Positions 2,847-63,806 of a stretch of 64,000 nucleotides of DNA are shown piece after piece. Under the pieces are notes generated by a model. It ran no database searches. It was not told the origin of the DNA and worked only from the letters and a program-made list of their open reading frames with translations. The position numbers were made by a program, and so were the translations under genes. This DNA is from a virus (lineage: Duplodnaviria; Heunggongvirae; Uroviricota; Caudoviricetes). The stretch is taken from the IMG/VR virus record IMGVR_UViG_3300029736_000004. The stretch is one strand, 5' to 3'. Within the stretch, counting starts at the first letter, position 1; each line of letters begins with the position of its first letter.

Positions 2847-3893
2847 TTAGCCACGGTTAACTCCTTGCTGTGTGGCGTCGAGTAATAAATCCCACAACCG
2901 CTGAGAGCAATTTCCGCATGTACAGCGTTGACCCACAACGTTTATCGCGTTGCTGATTTCCGGCGTTACCTGTTTAGGAACCATAACCCAACCATCCGGA
3001 GTTACCGGAAGCGAGAACGGCAGCACATCTCTGTGAACAAGTTTTTGCTGTGACAGGTTATCCAGAACTTTCTGTACTGCTGCATCACCGAATACACCAA
3101 GCGCATCTGCCATAACTCCTACAACCTGATAAGCCTCAGCGCATACCGTGGATAAACCATCCGGAATTACCGGAGAGTTGCCTGCCAGTCTACGCAAAAC
3201 AGTCTTAACCGCCTCAATACGGTCATCATCGCAACTTTCCAGCGTATCTATGCGATCGAGCATGATGATGGCGTTATCAATATCAGGATTGCCGGTCCAC
3301 TCATTACCGCGATTGGATTCGGCAGCCTGGTTGCCGCGTACTGGTTGATTCTCGGCTTTACCCTGTCTGTCGTCGCTGCATGAATGCCCTTCCAGCCAGA
3401 CCAGTGCTTGTCGCATGAAATACGCAATATGCTTGCCGTGGTAATCGTCTTCATCGATGTGAAAAGCGATACTGCGGATATATTCAATTGCGTTTTCAAT
3501 GGCCTCCGGCGTTATCGGTGCTGACATATTTTTATTTTGGAGTGCCAAGACGCGGCTGGCATCCTCTACGCCTTTAACTGCATCTGCGCAGTAGTTATAG
3601 CGATTGCATTCCACTAACTTCTGCTTGAGATTTTCAATTGCTTGTGCGACATCAGCCTGCAATTCCGGAACTGGCGGAGTGGCATATAACGGCACCCACT
3701 TTGGTGCTTTATCCCCGACCGAACGCTGATACCAGTCACCCGGTTTGTATTCATAAAAATCACCAACTGGCTCTGCTTCCAGAGATGCCAGCGCAATTTC
3801 ATAAGCACGGCGCTCAATATTGTCTCGCACGTCCAGACTGCCTATGCGCTCTTTGATTTCTTTAATCAGTTCTTTGTCGGTTAAAGTGGTCAT
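2847..3893 (-). CDS. hypothetical phage protein (348 aa)
   Basis: Long ORF, C-terminal CTCGNC motif; no confident family assignment. Confidence 0.5.
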   Translation of the reverse strand: MTTLTDKELIKEIKERIGSLDVRDNIERRAYEIALASLEAEPVGDFYEYKPGDWYQRSVGDKAPKWVPLYATPPVPELQADVAQAIENLKQKLVECNRYNYCADAVKGVEDASRVLALQNKNMSAPITPEAIENAIEYIRSIAFHIDEDDYHGKHIAYFMRQALVWLEGHSCSDDRQGKAENQPVRGNQAAESNRGNEWTGNPDIDNAIIMLDRIDTLESCDDDRIEAVKTVLRRLAGNSPVIPDGLSTVCAEAYQVVGVMADALGVFGDAAVQKVLDNLSQQKLVHRDVLPFSLPVTPDGWVMVPKQVTPEISNAINVVGQRCTCGNCSQRLWDLLLDATQQGVNRG

Positions 3894-3903
3894 AAATTAT
3901 GCC

Positions 3904-4437
3904 TCAGTTGTATCCGATTGGATTAACCGCAACAATAACGCCATCCGCGAACAAATCTTTAATGAGGTGTTCGCTCGGCTCGCCTTTTTCGTACTCTTCA
4001 ATAAGGTAAGTGTCTCCATCCTCATTGATATAAACTGGAAGAATGGAACCGTTGATGAAGTAGGTTCCGTTGTTATCGAGGATTTTTGCCTCGGCGATTT
4101 GTTTTTTGGTAAAACGATCTTCTTTTTTCAAAGTTGCCATATCTGTTTCCTTATGTGGGTTAATTTTATTGTGTAGCTTCCTGAATGGGGTCCACACTAT
4201 ATCGATATACAGTTCAACTAACGGTTCAAATACTTTCCCCATTAGAACAGTCACTAATATTGAGGCTATTGGTATCAGCAACACGAAAAACAGAATGATA
4301 AACAGCAATTCTAGTGCTCTACTCTTTCGCGGATATTCTTTTCTGAATAAAGTGGGCATTTCCTCCCCATTAAATGCCTCAATGATTTCTCCAGTGTTTT
4401 GCGCTGCACCTGAATTATCTTTAAATCCTTCTTTCAT
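3904..4437 (-). CDS. membrane protein (177 aa), AT-rich gene
   Basis: Central transmembrane segment LELLFIILFFVLLIPIASILVTVL; locally low GC. Confidence 0.5.
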   Translation of the reverse strand: MKEGFKDNSGAAQNTGEIIEAFNGEEMPTLFRKEYPRKSRALELLFIILFFVLLIPIASILVTVLMGKVFEPLVELYIDIVWTPFRKLHNKINPHKETDMATLKKEDRFTKKQIAEAKILDNNGTYFINGSILPVYINEDGDTYLIEEYEKGEPSEHLIKDLFADGVIVAVNPIGYN

Positions 4438-5132
4438 CGTTTGCTATCTTCCTCACACCCAAGATATGAAAGAGATGTAATTGCTTTTGCACGGAAACCA
4501 CCAACCTTGCTAAGTGCGCTTTTAAGTGCGTCAAGGTCAGATTGTGATTTGATCATGAAAGTTAACCGCGCAATTCCAGACATAGAGTCAGAACCATTCA
4601 CTGCGTTGTAGTGATATATGTATCGGGTGACTGATTGAGTCACGCCCTCCTGCTGGTGGTTTATATTGGCGTCCTGTCTTGTGTTGGCCTGCTCCAACTC
4701 TTCGATACGTTCAGCCATCGCAGCACACTCTTCAAAGTTGCTTAATGCTTTTCGCTCCGATTCAGCGCATTGTTTTTCCAGTTCTGCTATGCGCTTACCT
4801 CCATCCGCGATTACTCCCTCGTAATGCTCGCGCTGCTCGTTGAGTTTTGATTTTGCCGACTCCAGTTGTTTTGTTAGTTCCACAATACGGCAAACATCGT
4901 TGATACGCGTTTCCTCTAATGCGTTGATCTCATCCAGTAGTGCCAAAGCAACCTTGGGATTAAAGGCAGCAATAAATTCAGCGTTGTTTTTCAGAACGTG
5001 TTGCGCAATGGCCTGACTACTTAGTCGGACCTCATAACCACGTGCGCCACGGTGTGGTTTATATGAGTCCCAGTCTCCCCACGTTGCTTTCACTGCCGCC
5101 TCACGCAGTGCCTGGTAATTAATTTCGCTCAC
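4434..5132 (-). CDS. Ead/Ea22-like family protein
   Basis: N-terminus [13 protein letters not shown] typical of lambdoid Ead/Ea22-like proteins; coiled-coil middle; start overlaps upstream stop. Confidence 0.6.
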   Translation of the reverse strand: MSEINYQALREAAVKATWGDWDSYKPHRGARGYEVRLSSQAIAQHVLKNNAEFIAAFNPKVALALLDEINALEETRINDVCRIVELTKQLESAKSKLNEQREHYEGVIADGGKRIAELEKQCAESERKALSNFEECAAMAERIEELEQANTRQDANINHQQEGVTQSVTRYIYHYNAVNGSDSMSGIARLTFMIKSQSDLDALKSALSKVGGFRAKAITSLSYLGCEEDSKR

Positions 5133-5577
5133 TGGTTGCCTCCTTATTAATCAGTTTATACAGGTGCACCACAGTCACAGAGAGTGCATCCATCGCTCGT
5201 TTATCCAGGCGCGGGGCCAGAGCAACCAGTTCATTTATTGCAATCTGAATACGCTGCTCCGCCGCCAGCGTCGCGCGATTGCTCTCCAGTTCTGCAATTC
5301 GGCACATGGCATCAATATTTGCGTCTTCCAGGCGCTTAATTTCGCCCAGTAGCGCCAGCGCAACTTTTGGTGGGATAGCCGCGATATAACGGGCATTGGC
5401 ACCAGCGTTTCTCAGCCCATCAATACCAGGCCAGTCAATAAAGTATCCGCAATGCCTACCCTCAGACGTGCGCGCAGGATAAATGCCGTTATGACCCGGC
5501 AAAATATATGCTACCCATTCATCTTGCGTTGCCTGTTCCGCCGCCTCGCGCAGTTCTTGATAGTTAATTTTGATCAC
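5119..5577 (-). CDS. Ead/Ea22-like family protein
   Basis: N-terminus (V)IKINYQELREAAEQA; GTG start overlapping upstream stop in conserved junction GGAGGCAACCAGTGA. Confidence 0.6.
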   Translation of the reverse strand: MIKINYQELREAAEQATQDEWVAYILPGHNGIYPARTSEGRHCGYFIDWPGIDGLRNAGANARYIAAIPPKVALALLGEIKRLEDANIDAMCRIAELESNRATLAAEQRIQIAINELVALAPRLDKRAMDALSVTVVHLYKLINKEATSERN

Positions 5578-5830
5578 TGGTTGCCTCCGCTTCCCACGTT
5601 TTCAGACTTTCACCACAGAACGGGCAAAATGAAATTCGAATCGGCGATTTAGAAAACTCGCCTGACCGCAGCATGATCAGGTCTTGTGAATGAATTAATG
5701 CATGGTTATAGATTTTGTATTTCAGCAGACCTTTTCGCGTCGTGTATTCAGCGTCATGTTCCAGGGATTGCGTCAACGCCGCGCACGGTTCTATCTTGTT
5801 GCCATTAATTTGGCATTTTGACTCACTCAC
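5564..5830 (-). CDS. small Cys-containing protein (about 88 aa)
   Basis: GTG start at 5830 in the conserved junction (GGAGG then GTGA overlap); FCPFCG motif. Confidence 0.4.
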   Translation of the reverse strand: MSESKCQINGNKIEPCAALTQSLEHDAEYTTRKGLLKYKIYNHALIHSQDLIMLRSGEFSKSPIRISFCPFCGESLKTWEAEATSDQN

Positions 5831-6066
5831 TGGTTGCCTCCTTTGCGGAGTTGCGCTGCGATGCACGAAAAAAAAGACTCCCGAGTATGACAGTTAAGAG
5901 CTGGTGCGAACGCCGCGTTAAGAACGGCGGCATCACAGCCGTCATCAATATAGAGCGCAATTTTTTTCTCCAGGCGCGCTTTGGCTTCCTGCAACTGCAT
6001 ACCCCGGCACGCACGCGGGATATAATCAGCAATTTGAGCGATAGCTTTTTCGTTCTGTTTAAACAT
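5827..6066 (-). CDS. small protein with Ea22-type C-terminal tail (LRKGGNQ)
   Basis: Ends with the same [10 protein letters not shown] tail as the larger Ea22-like proteins at 9629 and 11143. Confidence 0.45.
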   Translation of the reverse strand: MFKQNEKAIAQIADYIPRACRGMQLQEAKARLEKKIALYIDDGCDAAVLNAAFAPALNCHTRESFFSCIAAQLRKGGNQ

Positions 6067-6262
6067 GCTTCACCTCGATAGGCTTGATGGTGTCTAACAG
6101 CAGTCGGCGGCGCGTATTTTCTGCAAAATGGCGGCGTCCAGTTTCTTTGTGGTAAAACTCGTTTTTGCCAACGACCCACATCCGCTCTGTTTGGTGCAGT
6201 TTTTTTACCTGCGGGCCATCTTTGGTGATCACGGTACCGGTATGGGTTTTTACGATTGTCAT
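6059..6262 (-). CDS. hypothetical protein (67 aa)
   Basis: ORF in operon context. Confidence 0.4.
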   Translation of the reverse strand: MTIVKTHTGTVITKDGPQVKKLHQTERMWVVGKNEFYHKETGRRHFAENTRRRLLLDTIKPIEVKHV

Positions 6263-6311
6263 GCCACTACCTATTCGAACAGATGAACGAGATTTGATGC
6301 ATACTCACGGT

Positions 6312-7040
6312 TTATTCCTGAATGCGCTTAAACTCGATTACCCACACCCAGGGATTAGCGTTCCAGCTTTCTTCACCATAGATGGATTCCCACAGGCGCT
6401 GGAACGCAACCTTGGCCATTGCGAAATCCCCCTTGGGAGTAAGGAATGTTCCCGGGTGATCAGGGAGCAAACTTCCAGCAGGCGGAACGCCCTCATCCCT
6501 TGCATCGCATTCGCTGATATCGTTCAACCGCTCAACGCGCACGTTGGTAATTTCCAACAGGATGCGTGATGCCCATCGCGGCATGTGAATTGATGGACGC
6601 CACCCACCATCAAACTTTTCATTCACAGTGTGAGGTTTCCAGTCGGCATCATCGGGTATCGACCATAAACCGTAATCACCAGGCTTTTGCTCACAACTGG
6701 CCCGATAAATCCTTGCTGCGTTCTTCTCATCGCCACGACAAAGGTTGTCGTTCCAGTCCACACTGCAACCATCTTCATTGCCTAATATCGCCCATGTTTC
6801 ACGAACCCAAATTCGATCGCCGACGATACCAAAGGGGCAATTGAAAACACTGCTTACACCATCAGCCCCGTACCACTGAAAACCTGCACCAATTTCCCTA
6901 ACCATCACTGGTGCTTCTGGACCAACTTCCGCAGGCTGATTTTTCATTATCCGCCGCGTCTGCGTTTTCCTTCCTTCGAGGATGGCTCGGACCATCTCAT
7001 CGTTAAAAATCATCCCGCGTTCTTTCATTTTTTGATCCAC
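6312..7040 (-). CDS. conserved prophage protein (242 aa)
   Basis: N-terminal MIFNDEMVRAILEGRKTQTRR motif resembling prophage proteins of unknown function. Confidence 0.5.
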   Translation of the reverse strand: MDQKMKERGMIFNDEMVRAILEGRKTQTRRIMKNQPAEVGPEAPVMVREIGAGFQWYGADGVSSVFNCPFGIVGDRIWVRETWAILGNEDGCSVDWNDNLCRGDEKNAARIYRASCEQKPGDYGLWSIPDDADWKPHTVNEKFDGGWRPSIHMPRWASRILLEITNVRVERLNDISECDARDEGVPPAGSLLPDHPGTFLTPKGDFAMAKVAFQRLWESIYGEESWNANPWVWVIEFKRIQE

Positions 7041-7044
7041 ACCA

Positions 7045-8040
7045 TCAGTTATTGAACGTGATCACTCCGCGCTCGATGGCGAAGTCGAAAAGCTGGTTGG
7101 CGGCTACGTAAAGGCGTATGCCATGTGCTTTTTCCCATGCCCGGACATCGTTTTCTGCGCTTCTGGCGCATTCATCGCAAAGAGGAACGGCCCAGCGATC
7201 GTGTTCGTTTAACGAGCGGGCGCGGTACATGAACGGGTGATTAACTTTGCCTCCGCATCCGATGCACGGACGAGAAATCACAAACCGGAGATAAGCCGGG
7301 CTTTTACCGAGAACCGCTTTTGGTCGGCGCATATACAGCAGGCCGGAATCCTCATCTACAGACAGGTTGACGATCTGCTCTGCGGTTATGTCCACCAGCT
7401 CACGGGTGCTGTGCTCCCAGGTGATATCCGATTCTTTCAGTGTGCCGGTAGGGATTTCCTGTTTTGGCTGACAAAATGCAATGCGACCGGCTTCATCTGG
7501 CAGCTCGTCTTTCAGATTCCGGCGAATGGCCCAAAAAGTGAGTTCAACCATGCTCAGATCGCGTTCTGGCGGTAGTTTTAACTCGCTCGCAGCCCAGTTC
7601 ATAACCCAGTTGGCACGATTCAGGGATAACTGGTCATCCAGCTTGCCGTACCCCTTCATCATGTATTCCGCATCATGCTTCCAGCACAGGCGAACGGCAG
7701 AGCCGTTATAGAAATGAGTGGTTAGCTGGTGGCTGCAATCGCGCTTATCGTGCGCCTGGCAATCGTGGATATTGGAACTTACCCAATGAACAAGCGAATC
7801 TTCACCGCCTAATGCGTTAAATACGCGCTCGCTTTGAAAAAATGCTTTCAGAGACTGGTTGGCAACCAGCGAATAGTTCAGATCCACTACGCCATCTGGC
7901 GTGTTTTCAGCCTGTTCGCGCGGAAGTGGAGAGATAATGAAACGGCGACCTGCGCCAATGTAGTTGCTGGTGGGCTTGTCTACCGGAAAGACAGCCACAC
8001 CAGCTCCGTTTACGAAATGAGGTGTGATTATTGCACTCAT
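7045..8040 (-). CDS. prophage protein with C-terminal Cys-rich HNH-like motif (YdfU/DUF968-like)
   Basis: C-terminal CIGCGG ... HPFMYRARSLNEHDRWAVPLCDEC pattern. Confidence 0.45.
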   Translation of the reverse strand: MSAIITPHFVNGAGVAVFPVDKPTSNYIGAGRRFIISPLPREQAENTPDGVVDLNYSLVANQSLKAFFQSERVFNALGGEDSLVHWVSSNIHDCQAHDKRDCSHQLTTHFYNGSAVRLCWKHDAEYMMKGYGKLDDQLSLNRANWVMNWAASELKLPPERDLSMVELTFWAIRRNLKDELPDEAGRIAFCQPKQEIPTGTLKESDITWEHSTRELVDITAEQIVNLSVDEDSGLLYMRRPKAVLGKSPAYLRFVISRPCIGCGGKVNHPFMYRARSLNEHDRWAVPLCDECARSAENDVRAWEKAHGIRLYVAANQLFDFAIERGVITFNN

Positions 8041-8082
8041 AATGTATACCGACTCTGTTTTGTTCCGAGCGGTAAAATAATA

Positions 8083-8113
8083 TGTTAGAAAATTAAAATC
8101 AACATTCTAACAC
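8083..8113. promoter_or_regulatory. operator-like inverted motif (site A)
   Basis: TGTTAGAAAATT-9 bp-ATTCTAACAC in the intergenic region upstream of the 7045..8040 gene. Confidence 0.5.
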
Positions 8114-8144
8114 GGTTTTGAGTGCATAAACGATGTGTTCAGGA

Positions 8145-8831
8145 TTACGGCTGGCCTCCCTTCACCTGCTTTAGCGTCAGATTTCCGCAAAAAACCGCGC
8201 CAGTGTCTATGTAGTGCTGGTTCCAGAAAGATTTCGGGCTGTTTACTGGCGTATGCCCGAAAATAAAGCTATCTGCACCAGTGATCATTCCACCAACACC
8301 ATCAACCGCGTCATAAAATCGCTCACGCCGCCAGGTAACATTGAGATCGCTAACAGGTTTACCAAACTGGTATTCGTTATCAGGATAGTCGGCATGGGCT
8401 ATAACGATAGTTTCATGCCCGGTGTTCAACTCAATGATATAGGGTAAACGTCTTACCAGCTCCACCAGCGCCCTGGCTAATATTTCCCGATCAGCGTCCA
8501 GCATGAAGAACCATTGGCCGCCATTCATTAGCCAGTTATTCACGTTGCCTGCGGGGCTTAACGCATCGATCATTAATCGCTCGTGGTTTCCCATAACCGA
8601 CCGAAACCAGGGCATCTGCAATAGCTCCAGGCATTCAACATTTTCGGTGCCGCGATCGATAAGGTCGCCAACCGATATCAGTAAATCCTGTGTCGGGTCA
8701 AAGTCCACACGATGAAGTTCAGACATCAATCTGGTGTAGCAACCATGCAGATCACCAACAACCCATATGTTTCTGTAGCCTGAACCATCAATACTGCTAT
8801 ATAAATTCACTTCATGCAGCGCCTGGGTCAT
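8145..8831 (-). CDS. Ser/Thr protein phosphatase (lambda phosphatase family)
   Basis: GDLHGC, GDLIDRG, GNHE metallophosphatase motifs and overall similarity to lambda orf221 phosphatase; start at MTQALHE overlapping upstream stop. Confidence 0.85.
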
Positions 8832-9139
8832 GCGGCAACCTTCTCCCGCAGCCAGATACAAACCGGGCCATCTTCAGTGTCATGAATAGAGCCAACAAAC
8901 CATCCTTCGCCCTCTGGTCGCTCTGGTTCCCAGGCGGCAATATCGGGACCATCTGCGTCCAGATTAAAATGATCTTCATCCATACTGCGAATAGTCCACT
9001 GAAGATTATTTTCCTTCATCCAGGCGTCAAATTCCTCAGTGGATATATATTCACGACCTGCGCAAAACTTTTCATACTCCGGATGTGTCCAGCAGCCATA
9101 TTCATCACGTTCTACCGGCATTTCTTTAATGATGCTCAC
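8828..9139 (-). CDS. hypothetical protein (103 aa)
   Basis: ORF, translationally coupled in the operon. Confidence 0.45.
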
Positions 9140-9360
9140 TCTTCATCCTCCAAGTCGGCAACGGCCTCCATCACATCAGAACCGCGAATAACCTCAAAAG
9201 CACGGCAGGCCATTTCAAACACCTGTTGTTCTTGCGGATGCGGTGACTCCCAATACTTAAAACCAGGTCGATGCTCGTAACCCAACATGGAATAAAAATC
9301 GCCAGCAAGCTCAATCGCGGCATCAACAAGTTCGCGATTTGTCATCGTCTGTTCTGTCAT
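9136..9360 (-). CDS. small acidic hypothetical protein (74 aa)
   Basis: ORF, coupled. Confidence 0.45.
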   Translation of the reverse strand: MTEQTMTNRELVDAAIELAGDFYSMLGYEHRPGFKYWESPHPQEQQVFEMACRAFEVIRGSDVMEAVADLEDEE

Positions 9361-9632
9361 TTTGTTTTCTCCTGTCTGAACATCACTATCATCAGGTCGC
9401 CTTTTGTCGCTATCCTGGCTGTTGTACCTGGTTCAATGCGGCTAAGCTCAAATGCGTCATAGAACGCTTCTAATGCCTTCTGGCGTAGTTCCTGTTTGCG
9501 CCGTTTTTTCCACTGTTTCAGGAAAATGGAACCCAGCCATCGCCATGTACGGGACATGATGTAAAGCCAACCGAGAAGTGCCAGACCGGTATTTAGGAGC
9601 GTATCGATCTTTATTGTCGTGTCGATATTCAC
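9357..9632 (-). CDS. small membrane protein (91 aa)
   Basis: Hydrophobic segment LLNTGLALLGWLYIM; start overlaps upstream stop. Confidence 0.45.
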   Translation of the reverse strand: MNIDTTIKIDTLLNTGLALLGWLYIMSRTWRWLGSIFLKQWKKRRKQELRQKALEAFYDAFELSRIEPGTTARIATKGDLMIVMFRQEKTK

Positions 9633-10339
9633 TGGCTGCCTCCTTTGCGAAGCTGTTCAGCAATACTTACGCATATCTCTGCGCCTCTAATCAGCCCCGG
9701 AACGTTCTTGTTTGGCCCAACTTCACCATCGACAAAATCAATCATCGCGTTACGAGCCATATCCACGCCCTGCGCACGTACTTCAGCCAGGAAAGCATCG
9801 GTGGCTGGGGTGTCAACACGGATACTGTCGCGCAAGATGAAAAATGCATTGAGCATTCCAGTCTCTGGCACTTCATCCTGATGCTTCTCATACGCATCAA
9901 GAGCCTTCATCATCTCAGCTCCGAATGGTTGAGGGTGCACAGACTTCAGCTCCGCATTCTCCGCCGCCAGCACCGCGCGTTCGCTCTCCAGTTCTGTAAT
10001 GCGCCGTCTTGCAGCATCCAGTTCAATCGACAATTTTTCCAACTGCTCTTTATGCTTCTTGTATTCCTGATATGCGTGCCAAGACTGACCTTTGCGCACA
10101 CTATCCGTGATATCAGTAATCTGTTCTGGTGTTAGCGTGGTCAGTGGCTGTGCTGGGAAAATCAGCACTTTCCCGGCATCCCAATCAAACCCCACCTGAA
10201 TTGACTGAACCTCAACTGATGGTGTTGAACCGATGCGACCAGGCGAATGAACAACGATCGTTACATCCATATCGCGACGATGGCTGTGGTTGTTGGACAA
10301 AATACGATTCACCAACTCCGAGAATTTGGAAAATTTCAT
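9629..10339 (-). CDS. Ea22-like protein (coiled-coil, C-terminal [10 protein letters not shown] tail)
   Basis: Start taken at MKFSKF (ATGA overlap with upstream stop); shared C-terminal module with 11143..11817. Confidence 0.5.
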
Positions 10340-10692
10340 GCTGATTCCCTTTGCTCTTCCTGGATAATGTTGTTGCAATCTTTCACGCACTCGTTGCAGA
10401 TGAAAACGTTGTCCCCGGCAATTAACTTTTTAACGGTGTGCTGGGATTTGTTGCAGAAGCTGCAATAAAGCGTTGGACTGGCTGATACGGATGGTGCGCC
10501 AGATGTCAGCCGCGCGATGTCGTTCTTGCGACGCAATATCACACGGCTGCACTCGACCAGCATCTCCGGGGATATATCCTCCTCCGTGGCGAGCGCCTCC
10601 AGACGTTCGAGCAAGCGAAATACTTTTTCCTGGGTGATTGCAGAATGCGATGTGGTCATCTCACTCTCCTTTGAGGCGAATGCCTGTTGCAA
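10336..10692 (-). CDS. protein with ClpX-type C4 zinc-finger domain
   Basis: C-terminal [38 protein letters not shown] closely resembles the ClpX N-terminal zinc-binding domain. Confidence 0.55.
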
Positions 10693-11146
10693 TGCTGTTT
10701 ATGATGCTGTCAGTGCATGGGGTAGAAAGCTGGGCATCTCCAGCAATTTTCATGACCTCAACATCTGCATATCGAATACCGAGGTGTATCAGACCGGCTA
10801 TGCCTGACTTAAGCCGAGCATTTTCCATAAATAGAACCTTTGCCCGCTGTTTTTCTGCTTCAAGCTCAACGCGCAGCTTCCCTACCGTTAGCGCAATATC
10901 CTCGTTCTCCTGGTCGCGGCGTTTGATGTATTGCTGGTTTCTTTCCCGTTCATCCAGTAGTGCCAGCACGGTTTCTGGTCCGGCCAGAAATTTGAAGGCG
11001 TTGAGCGCATCAATATCCACACCGTAATCTTTAAGTTCCTGTTCACTTAACAAATCATCATCAGCTGGCAACATTAACAGGCGTTCCATTGCTGGAATTG
11101 CACGTTCCGCCGCCTCACGCAGTGCCTGGTAATTAATTTCGCTCAC
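10661..11146 (-). CDS. Ead/Ea22-like family protein
   Basis: N-terminus [16 protein letters not shown]; conserved junction. Confidence 0.6.
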
Positions 11147-11817
11147 TGGTTGCCTCCTTTGCGAAGCTGGGCAGCGAACCTATCAGCTGCATCCGCGCAA
11201 GCAGAAGCAACGGAATCAAAAAATGGATCATCTCCTGTATCGCGCATCGTCAAAGCGAATGCCTCCACCCCTTGTGCCTGTATTTCTACAAGGGATGCCT
11301 TAGATGTAGTGCTTTTCGCCTCGCCTAATTCGTTATGAGCGATGTTCGCTATACATGCGATGTCTATATCTGGATGATTAATTGGGCAATGGCTAAGAAT
11401 TGCCTCAAGTGCTGCTTTTTTGCTTTGGCATTCCGCCACCAGCGCCCCGCAATTGCTTTCCAGCTCTGCAATACACTTTTTAGCGGCCTCCAGCTCAACA
11501 CGCAGATTCTCAAGCGTTAGAGCCTTCTCCACGTTCTCGTCCAGCAGTTCAATCACATCAGGATCGCTACCATCAACTACTGATATGCGCGAATTTTTGT
11601 AATGCTCGTCAGCATAAGTTCGTCCAGTTTTGAAGCATCCGTCATCCTCCATGCCGGAACAGGCATAAACAACATGTGATCCAGATATGCGCTGCATTGA
11701 CATTTCCTCGCCACAAACAGGGCATTTAGGCGCTGGTTTCGGTGAATAACGTTCACGTAACGGATAGTAAAGCTCGATCTCCGCCAGTTGCTCTGGCGTT
11801 AAACCTTCAGACTTCAT
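11143..11817 (-). CDS. Ea22-like protein with N-terminal Cys cluster
   Basis: CPVCGEE...ACSG...C N-terminal motif, coiled-coil, C-terminal [10 protein letters not shown] tail. Confidence 0.5.
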   Translation of the reverse strand: MKSEGLTPEQLAEIELYYPLRERYSPKPAPKCPVCGEEMSMQRISGSHVVYACSGMEDDGCFKTGRTYADEHYKNSRISVVDGSDPDVIELLDENVEKALTLENLRVELEAAKKCIAELESNCGALVAECQSKKAALEAILSHCPINHPDIDIACIANIAHNELGEAKSTTSKASLVEIQAQGVEAFALTMRDTGDDPFFDSVASACADAADRFAAQLRKGGNQ

Positions 11818-12927: not shown

Positions 12928-12959
12928 GTGTTAGAAAATCAATTTTGATTTTCTAACAC
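12928..12959. promoter_or_regulatory. operator-like near-perfect palindrome (site B) in a divergent promoter region
   Basis: GTGTTAGAAAATCAA-TT-TTGATTTTCTAACAC between the minus-strand operon and the ref-like gene. Confidence 0.55.
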
Positions 12960-12961
12960 GT

Positions 12962-13579
12962 TTGATCAACCATAGCGGCGATGTAGACAAACCGGGTATT
13001 TCTATGAAGCAAAGCTATTGGGAGAAACAGACACAAAAAGCCCTGCAAAAACTGGCTGATCCGAAATGGCGGGAGGAACAAAGGGCAAAGCGTCTTCAGC
13101 AAGCTCAACGCCTGCAGCAGCGTGCGCGAGAAAAAGCCGCATCGCCTGAATATCGGCAAAAGAAAATTGAAAAAGCGAAGCAATATGAACAGCGAAGAAA
13201 AGAGAAGGCCGCTTCTGCTCCTGTCAAAAAAACTCGCGCGTCACGCGGCCTGAAAGGCAGAACACTCACAGCAGATGAGCGCCGGATACAAACTGCCATC
13301 GGTGCTCTCCCCTGCATTGCCTGCCATATGCACGGACAGCATAGCCCTGTGGTATCCCTGCACCACATCTTCGGAAGAACAGCAGAGAACGCGCATAAAT
13401 ACGTCCTCCCTTTGTGTAAATGGCACCATCAACACGCAGCGCCAGCAGAGATCCGCGAGCAATACCCCTGGTTGGTTCCTGTTCATGCTGATGGAAAAAT
13501 AGGCGGCAAAGCAGATTTCAGGCGGCACAATGCTGATGAAATGACGTTGTATCAGATGGTGACTGAATTAATAAATTAA
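12962..13579 (+). CDS. ref: Ref-like HNH endonuclease (recombination enhancement function family)
   Basis: Basic Lys/Arg-rich N-terminal half plus C-terminal His/Cys HNH-like core (CIACHMHG, SLHHIFGR, LPLCKWHH); TTG or internal ATG start. Confidence 0.5.
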   Translation: MINHSGDVDKPGISMKQSYWEKQTQKALQKLADPKWREEQRAKRLQQAQRLQQRAREKAASPEYRQKKIEKAKQYEQRRKEKAASAPVKKTRASRGLKGRTLTADERRIQTAIGALPCIACHMHGQHSPVVSLHHIFGRTAENAHKYVLPLCKWHHQHAAPAEIREQYPWLVPVHADGKIGGKADFRRHNADEMTLYQMVTELIN

Positions 13580-13590
13580 TTTTCTAACAT
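13578..13590. promoter_or_regulatory. operator-like half-site (site C)
   Basis: ATTTTCTAACA overlapping the ref stop, upstream of the immI-like region. Confidence 0.35.
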
Positions 13591-14079: not shown

Positions 14080-14184
14080 AAAACACACAGTTGCGCCCTG
14101 GCATTATCGTGGGGTATATTTCTACGGCACCTTAGAAAAACGGGTGCCGGGATTGGAACCCCGGATAATGTCAAAGGCGACACA

Positions 14185-14206
14185 GACGCCGAAAGCGTCT
14201 TTTTTT
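14185..14206 (+). terminator. intrinsic terminator-like hairpin
   Basis: GACGC-CGAAA-GCGTC followed by TTTTTTT. Confidence 0.45.
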
Positions 14207-14224: not shown

Positions 14225-14330
14225 GCCATACGTAGCGTTTAGCTCAGAGATCAATGGTAGTGCTGGCTGGGCTGCCGAAAGGCAGGCCGGTTCCCTTTGA
14301 CGCCGGTAGTTCCAACCCAGTCAGTGCTAC
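14225..14330 (+). ncRNA. c4-like antisense RNA (immI-type), approximate bounds
   Basis: Contains GGTTCC, CCTTTGAC and GTTCCAA complementary to TTGGAACC and GTCAAAGG found upstream (14151-14177) and over the icd RBS (14341-14383); local hairpins. Confidence 0.4.
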
Positions 14331-14391
14331 CGCCATTGAGATTGGAACCTCACGCGGTAGCTCCTTAACTTAGTCAAAGGAGGCTGCCAAT

Positions 14392-20402: not shown

Positions 20403-20603
20403 GTGTTTGCAAGGACATGAATAGTACACTATTATGATGGTGAAGGAATGGTACATGTTGAACCAAACCTTCGAGGATGCAGCAGACTGAAGAAATTCAG
20501 ACATCCCGCAACCAGCTATCATAACAGGTCAAACCAGTTGTGATACTTGGTCAAGGCAAAGTCCGGTAATGGCGTTCTGAATACCAGAAAATAATTTCTG
20601 GCG

Positions 20604-20634
20604 AAGCCCACCTTAAGGTGGGCTTTGTTATTTT
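20604..20634. terminator. terminator-like hairpin
   Basis: AAGCCCACC-TTAA-GGTGGGCTT followed by T-rich tract. Confidence 0.4.
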
Positions 20635-24543: not shown

Positions 24544-24587
24544 AAAACTGTGTTAGATAATTGAGTTTTATTTTCTAACACAGTTTT
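24544..24587. promoter_or_regulatory. operator-like palindrome (site D)
   Basis: 13-bp perfect inverted arms AAAACTGTGTTAG / CTAACACAGTTTT separated by 18 bp, directly upstream of rdgC. Confidence 0.55.
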
Positions 24588-63390: not shown

Positions 63391-63448
63391 TGTTGCGATT
63401 GACTGTACAATAACCGTGCGGCGGGAATTTCATCGCTCGAAAATGTAT

Positions 63449-63546
63449 GTTAGAAAATTAAATTGATGTTTCTAATCAAGAATGTATGATTTATATCGTC
63501 ACTAAAAAACAGCATCTGATAAAAATTCTGTTGATCTTTCTAATGT
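63449..63546. promoter_or_regulatory. operator-like motifs (site G) upstream of the second immI-like module
   Basis: TGTTAGAAAATT-9 bp-TTTCTAATCA and TTTCTAATG at 63538. Confidence 0.5.
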
Positions 63547-63679
63547 TCAGGCTTATATTCATGCCGTCGTAGCAAATTCTGCGACCGGGTTTAGCAGCCT
63601 GAATGTTAGTGCGGACAACCGCAGATATCCGATATTGCGGTATTTTTGTGTCCGTAAAACCGCGTTACGCCCAAATTAT

Positions 63680-63745
63680 GGTGGGGCGTGATGGGGAGGC
63701 TTCGGCCTGCTGGTTTCACTAACGCCAGTCTGCTAACCCCGTCAC
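63680..63745 (+). ncRNA. second c4-like antisense RNA (approximate bounds)
   Basis: CACTAAC and CTGCTAA complementary to GTTAGTG and TTAGCAG found at 63591-63611 and over the icd RBS at 63760-63798; GGC-TTCG-GCC tetraloop hairpin. Confidence 0.4.
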
Positions 63746-63806
63746 GTCCTGCCACCTGTTTAGCAGCGGGTAGCAGGTTGTTAAACCTGTTAGTGAGGCC
63801 GTAACT

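Follow-up and report, generated by a model that had tools for sequence, protein, structure and literature searches.

The stretch of DNA analysed here (the window, 64 kb) belongs to a P1/D6-like phage-plasmid, with D6 as its best phage match (58% coverage), and carries between positions 4434 and 11817 an array of accessory genes, all of them on the minus strand, in which members of the Ead/Ea22 family are interspersed with unrelated genes and five gene junctions are made of nearly the same short piece of DNA. Read in the direction of transcription, the array opens with a 224-amino-acid (aa) Ea22-family gene ending in the family tail (11143..11817; PF13935, 41.2 bits, 3.1e-10; phrog_368), followed by a 161-aa gene that has the Ea22 head and ends in ..LKGE* (10661..11146; PF13935, 112.9 bits, 2.2e-32), by a non-Ea22 cassette for a 107-aa protein that is little more than a ClpX-type C4 zinc finger (10336..10659; PF06689, 1.2e-17; ATG at 10659 according to RefSeq relatives) and by a 253-aa gene with the Ea22 coiled coil, C-terminal part and family tail (9629..10390), which matches positions 16-239 of phrog_368 (1.1e-55) and lies below PF13935 detection. 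A backbone block (7045..9632) comes next, with the DUF4752, 74-aa, 103-aa, Ppp phosphatase and DUF968 genes, and none of its four junctions has the repeated sequence. Further downstream lie a 79-aa gene recognised by its match to the phrog_1344 profile, below the PF13935 threshold, which has only the tail in common with the Ea22 family (5827..6066), an 88-aa phrog_4030 gene that runs from the GTG of one repeat to ..EAEATSDQN* (5564..5830), a 152-aa Ea22-head gene opening with MIKINYQELREAA (5119..5577; PF13935, 66.8 bits, 4e-18) and a 232-aa Ea22-head gene (4434..5132; PF13935, 76.3 bits, 4.6e-21).

How are the Ea22-like genes of this array related to each other? A first-pass annotation had described a tandem array of at least five Ead/Ea22-type genes. 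The number is borne out, since PF13935 exceeds its gathering threshold (27 bits) in four window genes, the full-length family phrog_368 matches five, and heads and tails could be located: the head MS/IxINYQxLREAA in three genes (4434-5132, 5119-5577 and 10661-11146) and the family tail in three others (5827-6066, 9629-10390 and 11143-11817). No gene in the window has both head and tail, as the full-length members of phrog_368 do. The array is not strictly tandem, because about nine non-Ea22 genes stand between the copies, including the ClpX zinc-finger, DUF4752, two small open reading frames (ORFs), Ppp phosphatase, DUF968, ASCH-like and 67-aa ORF genes. Identity of the six Ea22-like proteins to the first of them is 17-38%, and because the paralogs are so far apart a recent tandem duplication is rejected; judged by their sequences, these genes are old divergent mosaics.

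The repeated junction is much better conserved than the genes that it joins. When the window was scanned for CAAAGGAGGCAACCAGTGA with up to three mismatches, exactly five matches were obtained, all on the minus strand and every one at a gene junction, where the first-pass annotation had already seen shared, near-identical DNA; shuffled sequences gave an expectation of 0.04 matches and none of 100 shuffles reached five. Across the five aligned copies the invariant core is GGAGGCA[A/G]CCAGTGA; the core measures 15-19 nucleotides (nt), within which the copies are identical or one base apart. It is made of a strong Shine-Dalgarno (SD) sequence, AAGGAGG, a 6-nt spacer, CAACCA, a GTG start codon and a TGA that overlaps the start in GTGA. 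At copy 1 (11143..11161; CAAAGGAGGCAACCAGTGA) this TGA ends the 224-aa gene and the GTG opens the 161-aa Ea22-head gene; at copy 2 (9629..9647; CAAAGGAGGCAGCCAGTGA) the TGA ends the 253-aa gene and the GTG opens the DUF4752 gene; and at copy 3 (5827..5845; CAAAGGAGGCAACCAGTGA) the TGA ends the 79-aa gene and the GTG at 5830 opens the 88-aa gene. At copy 4 (5574..5592; AAGCGGAGGCAACCAGTGA) the 88-aa gene reads through in frame +1 to a stop at 5564 and the GTG at 5577 opens the 152-aa Ea22-head gene, and at copy 5 (5129..5147; ATAAGGAGGCAACCAGTGA) the 152-aa gene likewise reads in frame +1, to a stop at 5119, and the GTG at 5132 opens the 232-aa Ea22-head gene.

The proposal that this DNA supplies the stop of one gene together with the ribosome-binding site (RBS) and overlapping start of the next therefore stands in part: RBS and start are present at all five junctions, and the TGA is the upstream stop at three of them (5827, 9629 and 11143), where the upstream proteins end in ..QLRKGGNQ* or ..GGSQ* and the GTGA overlap is 4 nt. 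At 5129 and 5574 the TGA is not the stop; the upstream gene, read in the +1 frame (..KEATSERN* and ..EAEATSDQN*), stops 10 nt later and the genes overlap by 14 nt. The same GTG starts and 4-nt overlaps are used in the RefSeq annotation of relatives. All five junctions have the layout of coupled genes, with the SD 5-9 nt before the start and inside the upstream ORF and with stop and start overlapping. Because the SD is strong, the GTG follows six bases on and the upstream stop overlaps it in one frame, we infer that the downstream genes are translated by coupling to the preceding gene. No sigma-70-like promoter was predicted on the coding strand between 3500 and 13500, which is consistent with expression of the array as an operon. 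Two other roles for the junctions were considered and rejected. An attC-like hairpin or structured RNA is ruled out, because junction RNA and DNA fold no better than shuffled sequences (z from -0.68 to +1.55) and the motif has no dyad symmetry. A programmed frameshift fusing neighbouring proteins would need a -1 shift to reach the GTG frame; no slippery heptamer is present, and the upstream ORF lies in that frame in just 1 of the 158 contexts of the survey described below.

To what extent is this junction used outside the window? An exact search of IMG/VR with the 15-mer gave at least 120 loci, which are by construction selected for that 15-mer; the IMG/VR matches listed and the plasmid loci together form a survey set of 176 occurrences in 158 unique 495-nt contexts, and all survey counts given here refer to the matches listed. 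Of the 158 contexts, 94 have an upstream ORF that runs through the motif in frame 0 (..RKGGNQ*) and 63 have one that does so in frame +1 (..EATSE..*); the ORF beginning at the GTG stays open for at least 80 codons in 135. The use of two frames indicates that what is conserved is the nucleotide sequence and not a peptide. When the flanks were clustered into module types on their distal parts, skipping the 45 nt next to the motif, the contexts resolved into 38 upstream and 40 downstream types in 98 combinations. The main connected set holds 23 upstream and 25 downstream types in 83 combinations (142 contexts from 107 loci, with 36 independent cycles). As a control, the four-gamete test was applied to equal 90-nt segments, placed either across the motif or in adjacent halves of the flanking genes: 66 quartets were found across the motif, against one between the halves of the upstream genes and none between the halves of the downstream genes. 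For pairs of contexts that have a single flank in common, homology breaks off 0-5 nt from the edge of the motif in 57% of the 3′ and 52% of the 5′ comparisons, and in the remaining pairs it runs 11-40 nt into a conserved head or tail. Between junctions with both sides different, the shared tract, which contains the 15-nt core, has a median length of 22 nt.

The linker, as we call this junction, occurs in the P22-like phage HK620, in the Stx phages PA2 and phiSTEC1575, in 12 D6-like plasmids and in at least 120 IMG/VR contigs, and an 81-nt junction matches 455 phage records. In HK620 it stands between hkaH and hkaG as AAAGGAGGCAGCCAGTGA, with the same A-to-G allele as copy 2. The Stx2 phage PA2 carries the 67-aa and 79-aa cassettes of the window at 94% identity; homology ends exactly at 5826, the last base before the linker TGA, and a different Ea22 gene follows. 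The same 67-aa/79-aa pair, plus the 88-aa gene, is found in phiSTEC1575-Stx2k. The linker is thus common to lambdoid, P22-like and P1/D6-like phages, and it marks a route of gene flow between chromosomal lambdoid prophages, Stx phages among them, and P1/D6-like plasmid prophages. In a scan of bacterial contigs for the 15-mer, the matches listed include scattered single occurrences in unrelated bacteria; about 1,000 chance matches are expected in the 596 Gb covered.

Related elements show that the array itself is not fixed. The first-pass annotation had held that identical arrays in related genomes, lacking breakpoints at the junctions, would speak against a linker, and the opposite was found: no record in the collections of 50,697 phages, 72,556 plasmids and 5,426 complete E. 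coli genomes has an identical array, the best matches to it reaching 87% coverage at 99.0% identity and 85% at 99.5%, and pieces of it match 3,171 of the 5,426 E. coli genomes, mostly in chromosomal prophages. In a blastn comparison of the window with 12 D6-like relatives, homology ends at all five linkers. Counted in the first 10 relatives, ends fall near copy 1 in six (11155-11159), near copy 2 in five (9642-9663) and near copy 3 in six (5826-5842); at copy 4 the homology of relative L009 ends at 5588, and at copy 5 a secondary match of L004 ends at 5145. Over the 12 relatives there are 109 homology ends, and 25 of them are no more than 30 nt away from one of the five linkers; together the linkers cover 3.4% of the interval. 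The backbone block 7045-9632 served as an internal control: it is colinear where present, with no homology end at any of its four linker-less junctions in the 12 relatives.

The clearest case comes from three relatives (L002, L132 and L133) that are about 99% identical to each other and to the window over the shared backbone. In L002 the order is gene X, a first junction Ja (..CGTAAAGGAGTCATCCAGTGAGCGAGCTTTAC..), an Ea22-like gene, a second junction Jb (..CGCAAAGGAGGCAACCAGTGAGCGAAATTAAT..) and the gene beginning MSEINYQ, whereas L132 and L133 are without the Ea22-like gene and have a single, chimeric junction that is Ja on its left and Jb on its right. This places the crossover inside an 11-nt piece of the linker, CCAGTGAGCGA, that Ja and Jb share. 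One whole cassette, the homologue of window 11143-11817, has on this comparison evidently been lost or gained by recombination of linker with linker. Alleles of the linker behave in the same two-sided manner, GGAGTCATCCAGTGA being linked to one upstream module ahead of four different downstream modules, and GGAGGCAGCCAGTGA and GGAAGCAGCAAGTGA being mostly linked to DUF4752 behind varied upstream modules.

Recombination also takes place inside the Ea22-like genes. Conserved boxes recur in them, namely the coiled-coil motif 'ELE..LAAE' and a 16-nt LALLDE box (4765-4794, 5257-5314, 9959-10016 and 11431-11488; also 4930-4945, 5342-5357 and 10950-10965), and two of the three copies of the 16-nt box are identical. 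Intragenic homology ends near 9940, 5257-5288 and 10969 coincide with such boxes, and an Ea22 head gene of L004 has had a 140-nt patch replaced, the one lying between its conserved head and the 16-nt LALLDE box. This coincidence suggests that domain swaps within Ea22 proteins also use short conserved boxes.

Taken together, these observations lead us to regard the repeat as probably a linker, a short and conserved sequence at the boundaries of accessory genes in phage early operons, with a role in translation and another in recombination. In the mRNA, the linker would serve every downstream cassette as its translation initiation region, in coupling with the upstream gene. In the DNA, its 15-19 bases, often extended by a semi-conserved tail (..AAQLRK) and head, would form a patch of identity between otherwise unrelated gene pairs. 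Recombination between copies in different phages would swap all that lies to one side; within a single genome, recombination of direct copies would delete or add whole cassettes; and every product would regenerate a complete stop, RBS and start. The starting points of this interpretation, namely the motif, its use in two frames, the combinatorial reassortment and one internal crossover, are directly seen in the sequences compared. We infer short-homology recombination as the mechanism, which could depend on phage annealing proteins in lambdoid phages and on host RecA, perhaps with the neighbouring Ref, in P1-like elements. D6/P1-like elements are not known to carry a Rad52-like annealing recombinase. 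The idea of a recombination linker advanced in the first-pass annotation is thus sustained by the reassortment, the breakpoints and the mapped crossover, with two corrections: whole genes move, rather than modules shuffled into in-frame protein fusions, and linkers are not the only class of breakpoint.

Several points weigh against this interpretation. Many homology ends fall off the linkers, at 11779, 10660-10684, 6279-6317 (7 relatives), 3879-3906 and the coiled-coil box near 9940, and the ends are not independent events. At least two rearrangements in the window itself did without a linker. The 224-aa gene is a fusion whose first 13-14 codons (11779-11817) are those of gene X of L002 (MKSEGLTP..) and lead in frame into codon 4 (..LYYPLRE) of the Ea22-like gene; the deletion that made it bypassed junction Ja and took out gene X together with its linker, and in most relatives homology ends sharply at 11779. 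Likewise, a PAPS-reductase (NinC-like) cassette was deleted at the non-coding gap 6263-6311, a scar keeping the gene start (ATGCATCAA) and the last 20 nt or so of a gene that is intact at this position in L003, L132, L133 and the Stx phage PA2. A possible degenerate sixth linker, CAGGAATAAACCGTGAGT, lies at the end of the ASCH-like gene (6295..6320, minus strand) and precedes this scar. As regards the survey, variation inside the core is under-sampled because viral loci were selected for the exact 15-mer, and about 15 isolated singleton contexts may be chance matches to it. Gene borders are mosaic joints in phages generally, so that the excess of reassortment across the motif over that within genes does not on its own prove that the motif is causal. 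Finally, the shortest segment that pairs efficiently (MEPS, for minimal efficient pairing segment) is quoted as 23-27 bp for Red-beta and 31-34 bp for RecA (PMC3945230), and the core is shorter; exchange at the core alone should therefore be rare, and the extensions into head and tail probably help.

Some of these points would favour a view in which the motif is a translation signal only, kept by purifying selection: illegitimate joining occurs anywhere, the joints that survive selection are those at gene borders, and the motif is passively carried along by one of its flanks. The motif is indeed a near-ideal RBS, a similar design is found at the non-linker junction AAAGGAGAGTGAgATG, the window has deletions that did not involve a linker, many breakpoints are at borders lacking one and the core is below the published MEPS. 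We nevertheless think this account unlikely. The spacer CAACCA is not needed for translation, yet it is part of the exact 15-mer that is found again between gene pairs with neither Ea22 head nor Ea22 tail, although the constancy of the 15-mer in IMG/VR is not independent evidence, the loci having been selected for it. Moreover, wherever modules reassort both parental junctions carry the motif, variants of the motif segregate with the upstream flank in some cases and with the downstream flank in others, and the chimera of L132 and L133 needs a crossover inside the shared 11 nt. The sequence may fit a linker on which selection acted for recombination as well as a translation signal with homology as a further effect.

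A bolder version of the linker hypothesis would make the motif a selected universal adaptor for cassettes, an 'integron without an integrase' that combines a stop in two frames, a strong RBS, a start in the third frame and a shared patch of homology. If this were true, any accessory gene could plug into any early operon and be expressed, and the Ref nuclease may then raise exchange at such short homologies in plasmid-prophages; we hold this version to be rather improbable. It is harder still to see the repeats as leftovers of a tandem duplication of one ancestral Ea22 gene in this element, followed by later insertions and playing no part in exchange between phages. The recurrence of heads, coiled-coil boxes and tails in the window, and their union in the full-length members of phrog_368, could be taken in that sense, but paralogs only 17-38% identical are separated by linker cores identical or one base apart, the linker joins unrelated genes (DUF4752, phrog_4030 and ASCH-like), and it has the same role in HK620, in Stx phages and in more than 100 viral contigs with different neighbours, which makes this origin very unlikely. 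Enzyme-directed movement of cassettes, with the motif as the target of a nuclease or a site-specific recombinase (integron-like attC, homing site or Ref/HNH target), is the least credible explanation. The cassette-like layout, the HNH-type DUF968 gene inside the array and the Ref nuclease gene beside it might suggest it, but the motif has no dyad symmetry and no fold beyond that of shuffles, no integron-type integrase is annotated near the array in the 12 relatives, the linker works in phages that differ widely in gene content (HK620 and PA2) and the position of the crossovers varies across the motif.

The design of the linker may also throw light on a feature of Ea22 proteins, a C-terminal K/R-G-E motif of unknown significance (PMC7093339). 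The tail ..LKGE* of the 161-aa gene is encoded by AAAGGAGAGTGAgATG (10655-10680), which is at the same time the SD of the following ClpX-zinc-finger gene, in an arrangement of SD and start similar to that of the linker; the tail codons are AAA GGA GGC at the linkers and AAA GGA GAG TGA g ATG at 10661. Plausibly, then, the K/R-G-E motif is the Shine-Dalgarno sequence of the next gene read as codons. The ClpX zinc-finger gene (10336-10659) is conserved in nearly all D6-like relatives, and one conceivable role of its zinc-finger-only product is that of a decoy or an adaptor for substrates of the host's ClpX.

Other features of the element concern the control of the array and its surroundings. About 1,000 plasmids match the window, mostly non-mobilizable, around 90 kb in size and carrying Ref, Icd/Ant, Phd-Doc and HumD. 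A 30-nt palindrome, TGTTAGAAAAT-N11-TTCTAACA, is present at 8083-8112, 12929-12958 and 24551-24580, with weaker copies at 13560-13589 and 63448-63477 (8 strand-matches against 0.05 expected); the copy at 8083 is upstream of the DUF968 gene and that at 12929 lies between the array and the divergent ref. It is probably the operator of a D6-type C1-like repressor, in which case the Ea22 array would probably consist of two repressor-controlled early operons. The Ref-family nuclease gene (12962-13579) is directly beside the array and divergently transcribed. In P1, Ref is a RecA-dependent recombination enhancement function, and one may speculate that it helps exchange at short homologies near the array. 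Rfam also identifies a P1-type C4 antisense RNA twice in the window (14250-14337 and 63674-63759), one of them with an a1/b1 target. An isrK-like RNA adjoining the first C4 copy and an sroH match were likewise recorded with Rfam, the further coordinates being 14127-14205, 63553-63605 and 20441-20626, and there are two immI-like loci in this one element.

These results bear on a debate, old but still alive, about the origin of phage mosaics, which may form through homology at short linkers or through illegitimate joining on which selection then acts. The junction described here is an unusually clean natural test case, with an exact 15-mer, two reading frames, dozens of unrelated gene types, three virion types and a mapped crossover, and its value is that of a well-quantified example and a handle for experiments. 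The principle is old. Susskind and Botstein are said to have included 'linkers' in the modular theory in 1978, and Clark, Inwood, Cloutier and Dhillon reportedly described in 2001, for HK620, seven boundary sequences delimiting functional modules of the lambdoid 'metabolic domain'. Like those boundary sequences and linkers, the present motif is short and conserved, stands at gene borders with unrelated DNA on both sides, recurs in different phages and has recombinant joints inside it; it would differ from the boundary sequences so described in separating single accessory genes, in having five copies in one genome and in residing in a P1/D6-like phage-plasmid rather than a lambdoid phage. Short conserved boundary sequences have been cited as recombination foci that assort lambdoid modules, and at most mosaic joints a clear linker has been difficult to detect (PMC3029335). 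The motif string had no match in a full-text literature search, and the array region is not treated in the paper on the D6-like population (PMC6799933).

Three further systems invite comparison. The genes of the window share with the Ead/Ea22-like proteins of other phages, such as lambda Ea22 and P22 Ead, a build of head, coiled coil and variable C-terminal domain (PMC7093339), but unlike the lambdoid Ea22 proteins they reside in a P1-like plasmid prophage, each is a different mosaic and none joins head and tail. Relaxed recombination by phage Rad52-like annealing proteins has been put forward as the source of phage mosaics and gives phages and prophages a tested enzymology for exchanges where homology is short or diverged (De Paepe et al. 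2014, PMC3945230; Martinsohn et al. 2008, PMC2327257); the substrates in those studies were hundreds of bases long, whereas the linker core has 15-19 nt, below the quoted MEPS. Integron cassettes are likewise promoter-less single-gene cassettes that lie in one orientation and reassort between elements, but in contrast with the attC/IntI system the array has no attC-like hairpin and no integron integrase near it, its junction is coding sequence plus RBS, and exchange is apparently driven by homology. What the present case adds to these systems is the presence of multiple linker copies in a P1/D6-like plasmid prophage, their use in two frames, a count of the reassortment and a crossover located at the nucleotide level.

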